Shown here: positions 31,839-45,327 of the stretch, piece by piece
How the letters are laid out: every line of letters starts with the position of its first letter
Numbering within the stretch: position 1 is the first letter of the stretch
Origin: Lentisphaeria bacterium
GTDB lineage: Bacteria; Verrucomicrobiota; Lentisphaeria; JABSQK01; JAWLHB01
DNA: 64,000 bases
Reading direction: 5' to 3'
Assembly: GCA_041690595.1 (NCBI GenBank)
Contig: JAWLHB010000003.1
Span: 124,001 to 188,000, forward strand
Position numbers and translations under genes: made by a program
The notes under the pieces: generated by a model
What the model was told of the DNA's origin: nothing
Databases searched by the model: none
Seen by the model: only the letters and a program-made list of their open reading frames with translations

Positions 31839-33092
31839 TCAACTGCCGAAATCGTCGAATCGAATCATTTCCGGCTCGACACCAAGATCGTCCAGCATTT
31901 TCAGCACGGCACTGAGCATCATGGGCGGACCGCAGAGGTAATACTCGATGTCCTCGGGGGCTTCGTGATCCTTCAGATAGTGATCCCGCACGACACTGTG
32001 AATGAAACCCACAGGGCCTGTCCAGTTGTCTTCAGGCAGTGGTTCCGAGAGCGCGATGTGGAAGGTGAAGTTGGGGAACTCCTTCTCGATGGCGCGGAAA
32101 TGGTCTTCATAGAAGAGCTCGCGCATGGAGCGGGCGCCATACCAGTACGACACCCTGCGCCCGGTCTTGAGCGTATGGAAGAGGTGGAAGATATGCGAGC
32201 GCAACGGGGCCATACCCGCGCCACCACCGATGTAGACCATCTCCCGTTCCGTCTCCTGGATGAAGAACTCACCGTAGGGACCCGAAATGGTGACCTTGTC
32301 TCCAGGCTTACGCGTGAAGATGTAGCTCGACATGATGCCCGGCGGCACATCCTTCCAGCCGCCCTTTTCGCGATCTGGAGGCGGTGTCGCTACGCGCACG
32401 TTGAGCATGATAATGTTGCCCTCCGCCGGATGGTTCGCCATGGAGTAGGCGCGTACCACGGTCTCGTCGTTGCGCGCTTTGAGGGACCAGACATCGTACT
32501 TGTCCCAGTCTTCGCGGAACTTGTCCTGTACTTCGATATCCTTGTAGGCCACGTCGTACGGAGGCGCCTCGATCTGGATATAGCCGCCGGACTCGAAGTG
32601 CAGGCGCTCCCCCTCGGGCAGGCGCACCACGAACTCCTTGATGAAGGTCGCCACGTTGTTGTTCGACACAACCTCACATTCCCACTTGTTGATGGCGAAG
32701 ACTTCTGCCGGAACTTCGATCCGCATGTTCTCCTTCACCTTCACCTGACAGGAAAGGCGCCAGTGATTGCGCGCATCCGCTCGGCTGATGTGCCCCTCTT
32801 CCGTCGGCAGCAACTCGCCGCCGCCTTCAAGAACCCGGCATCGGCAGACGCCGCAGGATCCGCCGCCACCGCACGCGGAGGGAAGCAGGATGTCGTTGCT
32901 GGAGAGCGTATTGAGCAGCGTCGAGCCGGCCTGCGTCTCGATGCTCTTGCTCTCATCGTCATTGATGGTGATACGAACATTGCCCTTGTTGACCAGCTTC
33001 GCTTCGGCTGCAAGAATAGCGGCCGTCAGTGTCAGGATGATGATCAGGAAGACCAGAATCCCGGCTGTGATGATGATGATAGTTGGATCCAT
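31839..33092 (-). CDS. nqrF: Na+-NQR subunit F
   Basis: [12 protein letters not shown]...RLSCQ 2Fe-2[36 protein letters not shown]. Confidence 0.97.
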
Positions 33093-33142
33093 CCGATAAA
33101 ACTCTGGGAGTTGAAGGTTCTACTCTGAAAGTTGAGACTTGC

Positions 33143-33757
33143 TTAAAGACTGATGCCGGAGAAGGCCATGAAGGCCATCGCAATGAGGCCGGTCGTGAGC
33201 ATGGTGATGCCCAACCCACGCAACCCTTCAGGCACATTCGAATAGCGCATCTTGTAGCGTATCGCCGCCATCGAGACAATGGCTAACGCCCAGCCCACCC
33301 CGGAACTGAAGCCGAAGACGACGCTTTGCCCAAAGTCATACTCACGCTCGACCATGAAGAGCGAAGTACCCAGAATGGCGCAGTTCACGGTGATCAGCGG
33401 CAGGAAGATACCCAGCGCGCTGTACAGTTTGGGCGAGAACTTCTCGACAAACATCTCCACCAGCTGCACCATCGCCGCGATGACGGCGATGAAGGAGATG
33501 AACAGCAGGAAGCTCAGGTCGAGATCCGCCAGCGCGTCGATGCCTGTCCACGCCAATGCGCCGGAGCGCAGCAGGAAGTGGTTGATCAACCAGTTCGCCG
33601 GCGCCGTGATCGTCAACACGAAGATGACGGCTACGCCCAACCCCATGGCGGTATTGACCTTCTTTGAAAGAGCGAGATAGCTGCACATGCCCAGAAAATA
33701 GGCCAGCAGGATATTCTCGATGAAGATCGCCTTGATGGCAAGATTGATGTATTCCAT
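33143..33757 (-). CDS. nqrE: Na+-NQR subunit E
   Basis: [35 protein letters not shown]. Confidence 0.97.
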
Positions 33758-33768
33758 AATCGGTTCCT

Positions 33769-34410
33769 CTAGTCCTCTACATAACCGGAAAGGGTTCGCT
33801 GTATCCAGATGATCAGGCCAAGCAGGATGAAGGCGCCGGGCGCCAGCACCATCAGGCCATTGTCCATATACCCGAGCCTGTAAGCAGACTCCGGCAGCAA
33901 TTGAAAGCCCAGCAACGATCCCGAACCGAAGAGCTCGCGGAAGAAGCCGACTATCGCGATCACCACGGCATACCCCAGGGCATTGCCGACGCCGTCAAGC
34001 AGGGATGGCCACACCTTGTTGCCCATGGCGAAGGCTTCCAGCCGTCCCATCACGATACAATTCGTGATGATCAGCCCGACGAAGATCGAAAGCTGCTTCG
34101 AAACATCGTACGCATACGCTTTGAGCACCTGATCGACGAGGATCACCAACGACGCCACCACCACCATTTCAGCAATGATGCGTACGCGGTTGGGGATCAG
34201 CTTGCGGATCAGGGAAATGGTCACATTGGAACCACCCATCACCACCATCACGGCGATCCCCATGACCAGGGAAGGCTTGAGCAGTGCCGTTACCGCCAGG
34301 GCGGAACATATGCCCAGCACCTGAACGGTGATCGGATTATTGTCACTGAACGGATCCGTGAAGATCTTGCGGTTCTTCTTCGAGAAGAGTCCTTCGTTAT
34401 CGCCGGCCAT
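33769..34410 (-). CDS. nqrD: Na+-NQR subunit D
   Basis: [36 protein letters not shown]. Confidence 0.97.
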
Positions 34411-34411
34411 C

Positions 34412-43600: not shown

Positions 43601-43716
43601 TCGAGATAAGGAAACTCGCGCTCGACATAGCGCTGGAATTCGGGAGTCCCCTCCAGCTCGTTGACGCTGCGCCAGTAGGGATTGTGAGATTCAGGTTCTT
43701 TATTTACCGATGACAT
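40675..43716 (-). CDS. actB: Alternative complex III subunit B (molybdopterin-oxidoreductase-like + 4Fe-4S domains)
   Basis: YWRS, NRRQFLQ Tat motif then [65 protein letters not shown]. Confidence 0.96.
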
Positions 43717-44357
43717 GCTGAGCAGTCCGTTCGCGGATTGATGTTCTTCTTCTCCATGATCTCTTTGGCGAACGCGAGCTGGTTTTCCCCCGGCTGCCAT
43801 TCCATATCCGTGACGGACGTAGCCGTCAGGTCGCGCAGGTGGGGGGTCGGATCGCGATGGCAATCCAGGCACCAGCCCATGCTTAATGATTTCTTCAGCG
43901 TAACGACTTCCATCTGGTCGACCCGGTCATGACAACTGGCGCAACCAACGCCTGCGGCCAGATGGACGGAATGGTCGAAGTAGGCGTAGTCCGGAATCTT
44001 GTGAACGCGGATCCATTCCATCGGTTTGCCGCTCTGCCAACTCTGTCGGATGGGGGCGAGCTGTTCACTCTCGGGCAGGACAAGTTGATGGCAGTTCATG
44101 CAGGTCTGAGTCGGCGGCACATTGGCCTCATGCGACTGATCGACGAAGTTGTGGCAGTAACGACAGTCCATGCCGAGATCGCCCACGTGCATTTTGTGGC
44201 TGAACGGCACCGGTTGCACCGGTTGATATCCGACATCGGTATATTCGGGAGAACCGTAATACCAGATGAACCCAACCGTCAGCAGGCCAGCCATGGCAGC
44301 TCCGGCTCCCGCCACGAAATGCAACAGATTAAACCATTTTGGGAATATCTGCGCCAA
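43704..44357 (-). CDS. actA: Alternative complex III subunit A (pentaheme cytochrome c)
   Basis: TM helix then QPVPFSH; CRYCH, CMNCH, CASCH, CLDCH, CSACH; TTG start after AAGGAAG. Confidence 0.95.
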   Translation of the reverse strand: MAQIFPKWFNLLHFVAGAGAAMAGLLTVGFIWYYGSPEYTDVGYQPVQPVPFSHKMHVGDLGMDCRYCHNFVDQSHEANVPPTQTCMNCHQLVLPESEQLAPIRQSWQSGKPMEWIRVHKIPDYAYFDHSVHLAAGVGCASCHDRVDQMEVVTLKKSLSMGWCLDCHRDPTPHLRDLTATSVTDMEWQPGENQLAFAKEIMEKKNINPRTDCSACHR

Positions 44358-44413
44358 TGTAATTCACTTCCTTGACTAGACGTTTCAACTAAGGTAAGCC
44401 GGCAAAAAGGCGC

Positions 44414-44442
44414 AATATAACGCCGTTCGCCAAGCACTACAA
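44414..44442 (-). promoter_or_regulatory. Possible internal sigma70 promoter TTGTAG-N17-TATATT before actA, overlapping a weak hairpin + T5
   Basis: Read on the minus strand in the ctaB-actA gap. Confidence 0.3.
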
Positions 44443-45327
44443 CGTGACCAGGGGAAATCCGAAAAGGCCTTCCAGTATCACCACGAAAAAGAGGGCCAGA
44501 AGATAGATGATGGAAAACTTGAACAAGCTGAACTCCGCCTGGCGTGTCCGGCACTTGAGCGCCGAAAAGGCCTTCCGCATGAAGAAGATGCCAAGCAATA
44601 CGGCGCTGACCAGGTAGAGCCAGCCAGTGCCGAAAGCGCCGAGAACGAGCGTTACGAAGACCATGGCGAGAGTATAGAACCACATCTGGCGAAGCGTGGC
44701 CAGATCGCCCCGTATAACCGGCATCATCGGCAGCTTCACCTTGCGGTAATCGTCCTGCAGATAGAGGGCCAGCGCCCAGAAGTGGGGAGGAGTCCAGAGA
44801 AAGATGATCAGAAACATCAGCCAGGCCGCAATACCGACAGTATTGGCTGCCGCTGCCCAGGCGATGACCGGCCCCATCGCACCGGCTGCGCCGCCTATCA
44901 CAATGTTGTGCACGGTGTTCGGCTTCAACCAGAGCGTGTAGAAAAGGCCATAGAAGAGAATTGTCCCCAAGCTCAGCAGCGCACTCAGCCAGTTGAAGAG
45001 GACGGCAAAAATAACGACCCCGATGATGCCGATACCAATGGCGAAGGCCAGCGCGCTGCCGGGCCGAACCTGCTTCATCGGGAGGGGACGCCGGCTTCGG
45101 GTGCGCGACATCTGCGCATCGATATCGCGTTCGAAGTACTGGTTCAACGCGTTCGCCGAACCACCCGAACAGAAGAGGCCGAACAAGACCAGCAGGAACG
45201 CCAGAGGGCGCCCAAGCAGACTCCCTTCCACGACAAGGCCGGCGGCACCAGTCACCACCACCAGCAACATGATGGTCGGCTTTGTCAGCTTCAAATAGGC
45301 CCTGACTTGTGGAATGAGCTTTACCAT
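44437..45327 (-). CDS. ctaB: Heme O synthase (protoheme IX farnesyltransferase)
   Basis: LTKP, NQYFERDIDAQMSRTRSRRPLP, NIVIGGAAGA, WTPPHFWALA, DDYRKVKLPMMP. Confidence 0.96.
   Translation of the reverse strand: MVKLIPQVRAYLKLTKPTIMLLVVVTGAAGLVVEGSLLGRPLAFLLVLFGLFCSGGSANALNQYFERDIDAQMSRTRSRRPLPMKQVRPGSALAFAIGIGIIGVVIFAVLFNWLSALLSLGTILFYGLFYTLWLKPNTVHNIVIGGAAGAMGPVIAWAAAANTVGIAAWLMFLIIFLWTPPHFWALALYLQDDYRKVKLPMMPVIRGDLATLRQMWFYTLAMVFVTLVLGAFGTGWLYLVSAVLLGIFFMRKAFSALKCRTRQAEFSLFKFSIIYLLALFFVVILEGLFGFPLVTL

Follow-up and report, generated by a model that had tools for sequence, protein, structure and literature searches.

Alternative complex III genes joined to a Na+-NQR operon in an order of Lentisphaeria, with a possible origin by tail exchange

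Alternative complex III (ACIII) and NQR, an NADH:quinone oxidoreductase of the Na+-translocating type, are each known from well-described gene clusters, and in the 64,000-nucleotide stretch of a Lentisphaeria genome analysed here (the window) the two are joined: on the minus strand, at 31839..45327 as an earlier, sequence-only reading had placed it, 13 genes run in the order ctaB-actABCDE-nqrM(like)-nqrABCDEF. In Rhodothermus marinus-type ACIII-caa3 systems, actABCDEF-G is followed by oxygen reductase genes (6F0K; PMC5928083). All of these subunits are encoded in the Lentisphaeria genome too, and the likeness extends to a pentahaem ActA, a monohaem ActE and a caa3-type oxidase subunit II with a cytochrome c domain; among solved structures, 6F0K is the closest to its ActC and ActF. 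Unlike in R. marinus, the cluster of this genome, a member of an order of uncultured Lentisphaeria, is cut between actE and actF: nqrM and nqrA-F follow actE, and actF-actG-sco-cox lies elsewhere, behind pps, a polyprenyl-diphosphate synthase gene. The Na+-NQR operon of Vibrio cholerae (nqrABCDEF, apbE, nqrM; PMC12174285) shares the same six-subunit order, the cofactor motifs, an adjoining NqrM-like gene and a genomic apbE, but here the nqrM-like gene lies upstream and apbE is not linked; ACIII genes adjoin the operon, and menaquinone is the probable quinone.

The electron chain that these parts would form is itself known. In Marinamargulisbacteria, a chain NADH > Nqr > menaquinone > ACIII > type A oxidase has been proposed (PMC6349859); the predicted path is the same, but the available text of that paper describes no gene linkage, whereas here there are two interlocked clusters. 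Segatella (Prevotella) bryantii couples NQR to quinol:fumarate reductase through menaquinone (PMC12174285), so that NQR and a menaquinol-oxidising partner occur in both; S. bryantii is anaerobic, uses another partner and its coupling was shown biochemically. It is the gene arrangement that was not found in print: neither an act-nqr linkage nor a split act cluster turned up in the literature searched (the surveys of Refojo et al., outside that search, may list variants). We favour, with reasonable confidence, an account in which a single ancestral tail swap produced two interlocked clusters, from which a forward respiratory chain is co-expressed.

Two interlocked clusters across one order

The cluster lies on contig C3 of an 8.1-Mb genome (G000; completeness 97%), and its gene order, single direction, gaps of 79 bp or less and ATGA overlap between actE and nqrM, all claimed from the letters alone, were borne out. 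The widest spacing, 79 bp, separates ctaB from actA; actA and actB overlap by 13 bp (the actB ATG is at 43716), and the other act genes are 5 bp (actB-C), 1 bp (C-D) and 4 bp (D-E) apart. The ATGA overlap, read directly at 37992-37989, leads into nqrM, after which come spacings of 20 bp (nqrM-nqrA) and 2 bp (nqrA-B), a 14-bp overlap (B-C), and spacings of 1 bp (C-D), 11 bp (D-E) and 50 bp (E-F). Neither GC content nor GC at third codon positions (GC3) shows a step at the actE/nqrM junction, the short nqrM gene excepted.

The sequence-only reading had noted that actF, and often SCO and oxidase genes, normally come after the act genes; this operon lacks them, but the genome has actF-actG-sco-coxB-coxA-coxC-coxD on contig C9 (G000:C9:108936-115165). 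An ActC query missed actF, and the second cluster was found with the ActF of f9, a sister family in the same class that includes the genus Lentisphaera (by the source names of related proteins). ActD is encoded in the window, and ActF on contig C9. The split recurs throughout the order: actF is present in 13 of the 14 other genomes, never beside actE, and in none of the 14 genomes with act genes does the canonical actE-actF adjacency survive. Instead, pps (PF00348) stands directly 5' of actF in all 14 genomes with actF, usually at ~50 bp or less. In the near-closed genome G004, the 1.95-Mb main contig carries both halves, ~137 kb apart, which excludes a break in the assembly as the cause of the split. 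An ActF-less ACIII in which NQR replaces ActF was considered and rejected once actF had been found in the second cluster; the gene for ActF need not lie with those of the other ACIII subunits, and in annotation a lone actABCDE should not be taken for a complex lacking ActF. CoxB of the second cluster has a haem c domain (caa3), and CoxA carries a YSHP motif, which we take to mark an A2-type oxidase. A further COX1 match, with 10 in-frame TGA codons, lies at G004:C3:14026-15366, probably on a mitochondrial contig in the bin.

Since actE, nqrM and nqrA are joined in 12 of the 15 genomes of the order, in all five families, the junction is not a misassembly. Support across it comes from assemblies and not from reads, but the probability of a misassembled or chimeric contig is next to nil and we rejected it: 11 other independent assemblies carry the same junction, with NqrA identities of 46-52%, and the complementary pps-actF junction is there in 14 of 14. 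One public DNA run held short pieces of related organisms only, with no contig bridging the junction, and gives no evidence either way. The three genomes without the junction are G008, with complex I genes in the slot; G009 (92% complete), which has nqr only and in which actD, actF, ctaB and the oxidase were not found; and G010, which has ctaB-actA-E, nuo genes elsewhere and no nqrA that we could find. Spacing between actE and nqrM in the 12 is at most 16 bp in 4 genomes (minimum -4), ~110-145 bp in 6 and ~240-310 bp in 2; the ATGA overlap itself is not conserved across the order.

Outside the order, no act-nqr link within 10 kb was seen in 69 genomes holding both complexes (actD and nqrA present), most of them drafts with actD and nqrA on different contigs: 26 come from the same phylum (8 of f9 and 18 of other classes; sample of 401) and 43 from a second phylum, that of the nearest ActC relative (sample of 151). 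In f9, actF comes after actE in every one of the 8 genomes. No nqr genes lie 3' of act in 80 ActC loci from many phyla (the best 80 of at least 599 matches, some loci incomplete), and no act cluster was seen in 73 metagenome NqrA loci (52 with more than 1.5 kb upstream), one Rnf-like locus having a weak ActB-like match. A synteny search had been proposed by the sequence-only reading as a check on the arrangement, which by these counts is real, order-wide and order-specific. Two divergent nqr-like clusters, L135 (G021:C103) and L136 (G043:C64), have NqrA proteins 25-28% identical and under the family cut-off; in G021, nqrE and nqrF were not seen beside nqrA-D.

A candidate exchange of operon tails

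The gene in front of actF is also found in front of nqrA outside the order. Pps has a first aspartate motif (TATLFHDDVID) of the long-chain, IspB-like type and is presumably, by the chain-length rule we assume, a long-chain enzyme for the quinone side chain. Orthologs were sought in 54 genomes chosen for nqrA or an nqrA-like gene. A strong one (E below 1e-44) is present in 33 of 39 other-class genomes with nqrA, and in 15 of these 33, from four families, it lies directly 5' of nqrA on the same strand; one more is 3 kb from nqrA with insertion sequence-like open reading frames between, one is adjacent but divergent, and 16 are unlinked. Within the class, G021 has a pps ortholog directly 5' of a divergent nqrA, and no strong ortholog was found in the 8 f9 genomes or in G009. 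Neither the 80 outside act loci nor the 73 metagenome nqr loci showed a pps.

Taking the outside states as pps/nqr and actA-E/actF-cox, the two arrangements in the order, actA-E/nqr and pps/actF-cox, are therefore their two crossover products, and one reciprocal exchange would be the simplest account. In an ancestor of the order, a resident pps / nqrM nqrA-F locus would have swapped tails with ctaB actABCDE / actF actG sco coxBACD, yielding ctaB actABCDE / nqrM nqrA-F, the cluster in the window, and pps / actF actG sco coxBACD, the cluster on contig C9. The actE/nqrM overlap (37989..37992, minus strand) would be one of the two breakpoints and the pps/actF boundary on C9 the other. We infer the pps-nqrM-nqrA ancestor: pps-nqrA and nqrM-nqrA have each been seen, the three genes together never, and no nqrM was seen in the other-class pps-nqrA loci. 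A kinase-phosphoesterase gene pair that lies 5' of pps here is found near nqrM in one f9 genome, which lends such an ancestor weak support. Alternatively, a foreign ACIII cluster may have entered as a circle and crossed over at pps/nqrM. Because in 5 other-class loci the cox block has ctaB as its last gene, a circle would place ctaB before actA, giving this arrangement and both junctions in one step; a coxD-ctaB link, as expected of such a circular permutation with ctaB once 3' of coxD, is seen in no genome of the order. Either a swap between resident loci or an incoming circle would fit. By either route, an exchange of operon tails would here have left both of its products in place across a whole lineage, a clear case that allows comparison with the ancestral gene orders.

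The ACIII of the order looks foreign to its class. ActD occurs in 22 of the 351 genomes of the class, confined to the order and f9. The order is one clade by FastTree for ActC, for CoxA and for NqrA+B, and likewise in an ActB+C+F tree; it is not resolved as a clade in a small ActC tree, and G002 is loosely placed in the ActF tree. Order ACIII groups with Marinimicrobia, Ignavibacteria and further bacteria (SH-aLRT 99), and in the loci of these nearest rows actABCDEF is unbroken and was not seen to be followed by a sco-caa3 block. A clade of order and f9 ACIII was rejected by ActB+C+F (p-AU 0.013; 38 rows, quick LG+G4) and not rejected by ActC alone (p-AU 0.48; 34 rows); the ACIII of the order and that of f9 appear to differ in origin. 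We name no ACIII donor because CoxA groups with rows other than those nearest to ACIII. The locus would thus mark how one Lentisphaeria order wired in aerobic respiration.

A probable forward chain and the possible value of the junction

In the proposed forward path, NADH > NQR > menaquinone > ACIII > ActE > caa3 or cbb3, NQR would oxidise NADH, pump a cation (probably Na+) and reduce menaquinone; ACIII, built from ActA-F and ActG and so from the products of both clusters, would oxidise menaquinol and pass electrons via ActE to either oxidase, with NQR and ACIII coupled through the quinone pool. The genome of the window holds menD, two ctaA-family genes, apbE, a succinate dehydrogenase-family flavoprotein, Rnf, caa3 and cbb3. 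Searches of it turned up no cytochrome b of bc1, no cytochrome bd, no futalosine-pathway MqnA and, beyond a hydrogenase-related match, no complex I NuoD. The sequence-only reading had put forward a co-expressed NADH > NQR > quinone > ACIII chain: the chain stands as the most likely function, while co-expression is plausible from the overlaps and the lack of a terminator-like site. The chemistry shows nothing new. Related genes in the same genome include a cbb3 whose CcoN and CcoO are fused (707 aa), together with three further matches to the haem-copper family that probably resemble nitric oxide reductase (G000:C61, C97, C36, C47), and both an F-type and a V/A-type ATPase (G000:C23 and C40), whose c and K subunits are, on motifs we assume, of the H+ and Na+ type respectively. 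A group 4 hydrogenase-related (Ehr-like) cluster at G000:C13:112000-121000 provides the genome's only Complex1_49kDa match.

Co-transcription of act and nqr is plausible because the genes overlap and no terminator-like site lies in the gap; none was found in the actE-nqrM/nuoB gap of this genome or of the seven relatives scanned. What has kept the junction in place is probably that, through it, the one NADH:quinone oxidoreductase found and the one quinol-oxidising complex found would share a transcription unit, and that each cluster needs the other. True NuoD occurs in the order only in the two genomes without nqrA, G008 and G010, and in G008 ctaB-actA-E is followed after ~490 bp by nuoB-C-D, with nuoEF(fused)-G-I-H-J continuing across a contig break inside nuoD (L036, G008:C278, and L181, G008:C192) at similar GC; no nuoA was seen 5' of nuoB. 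That an unrelated enzyme of the same job occupies this slot argues for the position having regulatory value and against a specific contact between proteins, and it hints that the place after actE is an "NADH dehydrogenase slot".

A number of points weigh against this account. The statement that NQR is the only NADH:quinone oxidoreductase found comes from a search without NDH-2, and complex I in its place is seen in a single genome, where a contig break interrupts nuoD. The actE-nqrM gap exceeds 100 bp in 8 of 12 genomes, the link is lost in 3 of 15 (replaced in G008, no act in G009, no nqrA in G010), and between ctaB and actA there is a weak terminator-like hairpin. In 4 of the 7 gaps scanned in relatives (two of the 4 from one genus) a promoter-like site faces nqrM or nuoB, so that nqr may also have its own promoter. 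Finally, all 12 cases come from one event, and their persistence may be plain inheritance. These points shade into a frozen accident, in which the same single exchange left an adjacency without regulatory value, maintained by low rearrangement rates, with an nqr promoter inside or after actE. The single origin, the gaps of up to ~310 bp, the promoter-like sites and the 69 outside genomes that run both complexes unlinked would all fit; even so we consider it unlikely, given the overlap or gap of at most 16 bp in 4 genomes of 3 families, the terminator-like sites in 0 of 7 gaps, the flanking genes that vary among members of the order while the junction stays, and the complex I in the same slot of G008. 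A window-wide promoter/terminator scan showed no excess over shuffles (5 vs 7.4; 17 vs 13.3). In genus g2, a conserved sigma-70-like site lies between actE and nqrM (L037:11294-11267, L039:4410-4383).

Adjacency could also reflect assembly. An NQR-ACIII(-caa3) supercomplex would be an NADH-to-oxygen respirasome whose parts are not related to complexes I and III. Menaquinol would be channelled from NqrB to ActC, and a single menaquinone cycle would feed a sodium gradient as well as a proton gradient; NqrB would assemble together with ActC/ActD as products of the actABCDE-nqr transcript, and ActF and the oxidase would then dock from the second cluster. The NQR and quinol:fumarate reductase of S. 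bryantii are said to form a supercomplex. Tight gene coupling, the ACIII-caa3 supercomplexes already known (PMC5928083) and the quinone site of NqrB, a surface pocket (PMC12174285), lean towards this idea, but we hold it to be improbable: a true subunit, ActF, is encoded in the other cluster, which makes gene adjacency no guide to contact here; in G008 the slot is filled by complex I, a structurally unrelated enzyme; and the quinone sites of NQR and ACIII face opposite membrane sides (PMC5928083, PMC12174285). Positions in ActA-F that are invariant in 8 linked genomes and rare outside number only 12, compared with 663 that are generally invariant, and of the 12, G010, a genome without nqrA, still has 10; in this weak test of 8 genomes no order-specific conserved patch was found on ACIII. 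The order offers a natural system for asking whether NQR and ACIII associate.

Reverse electron flow, in which ACIII and NQR would run uphill and make NADH from a high-potential donor, had likewise been raised by the sequence-only reading and did not hold up. It draws on the gene order and on a molybdopterin oxidoreductase of unassigned role on the 4-kb contig C94. RuBisCO was not found in the genome (other carbon-fixation routes lay outside that search), the A-type and cbb3 oxidases are present and tied to ActF, Rnf is present separately, and NQR is described as favouring the forward mode (PMC12174285); we regard it as very improbable, and the forward chain remains our preferred reading. On contig C94 (L291), a 931-aa Tat (twin-arginine translocation) molybdopterin oxidoreductase-like gene is accompanied by an iron-sulfur gene and by the beginning of a gene resembling NrfD.

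Proteins of the cluster and neighbouring genes

The proteins of the cluster look ordinary and intact, CtaB and NqrA-F passing NCBIfam curated cut-offs and ActD that of PF11821. All 13 genes are on the minus strand. The first, ctaB (44437..45327; NF003349 and TIGR01473 over cut-off), encodes a haem O synthase and stands directly 5' of actA in 9 of 14 order genomes. Next, actA (43704..44357, TTG start) encodes a pentahaem cytochrome c with 5 CxxCH motifs and QrcA/cytochrome c7 matches, and actB (40675..43716) a Tat-exported, molybdopterin-oxidoreductase-like and iron-sulfur subunit (TIGR04519 over cut-off, QrcB- and QrcC-like stretches, and Fer4 domains with Fer4 motifs). The NrfD subunit with the quinol site is encoded by actC (39290..40669; PDB 6F0K chain C, E 6e-209), followed by actD (38704..39288; PF11821, E 3e-61) and actE (37989..38699; PF13442), a monohaem cytochrome c with one CxxCH, probably a lipoprotein by an N-terminus that we take to be lipobox-like. 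In an alignment of ActC with 6F0K_C, judged by eye, all 23 quinol-site and proton-path residues of PMC8076601 are identical, the quinol site (His139, Ser164, Asp169, Asp253) and the proton half-channels being kept. ActF matches 6F0K_F with E 2.5e-89 and keeps, again by eye, 12 of the 14 residues named in PMC5928083, S80 and Y290 being changed. As predicted from sequence, ActA-F most likely act as a quinol:cytochrome c oxidoreductase.

The NQR subunits nqrA (36383..37744; TIGR01936), nqrB (35166..36380; TIGR01937), nqrC (34412..35179; TIGR01938), nqrD (33769..34410; TIGR01939), nqrE (33143..33757; TIGR01940) and nqrF (31839..33092; TIGR01941, with a 2Fe-2S motif) are all over the cut-off of their models, Rnf models staying under theirs; the set is thus of the NQR kind, with a cofactor-less NqrA and an FAD/2Fe-2S NqrF in place of RnfC/RnfB. 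The flavin mononucleotide (FMN) threonines are present in NqrB and NqrC, and NqrD and NqrE have two Cys each. The FMN motif is SGAT in NqrC and NGAT, not SGAT, in NqrB, which keeps the threonine and the N-terminal quinone helices. Aligned to 7XK3 chain B, NqrB keeps the equivalents of T236, F338, F342, D346 and D397, and hence its gate and acidic residues; the roles of T236, D346 and D397 are those we assume, and the roles of F338 and F342 are described in PMC12174285. Although H+-pumping NQRs exist (PMC12174285), the cation pumped here is probably Na+. In G006, nqrB and nqrC form a single 706-aa open frame (L031:10203-12323), either a real fusion or a sequence error; nqrA of G002 (L041:9741-11211) and actF of G013 (L180) are each split across two frames, possibly through assembly errors.

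The small membrane protein gene at 37765..37992 is called NqrM-like on its position, one hydrophobic stretch and four Cys. The gene is always 5' of nqrA, and the four Cys, presumably a hallmark of NqrM, are invariant in all 14 aligned copies. None of the 8 copies tested has a DUF539/NqrM Pfam match at E<=0.05, and a homologue search with the protein returned the query itself as its sole match.

Downstream, 3' of nqrF at 28400-31816 (minus strand), follow two genes for PDZ proteases of the DegP/HtrA-like type and one for a DUF2203 protein, with spacings of 22, -4 and 1 bp; this run is absent from the relatives' nqr loci and is not counted as part of the system. Beyond it, on the plus strand at 25210-28387, one run of genes comprises an extracytoplasmic function (ECF) sigma factor, an anti-sigma-like gene and the genes of a helical protein of 252 aa and of a protein with HEAT repeats.

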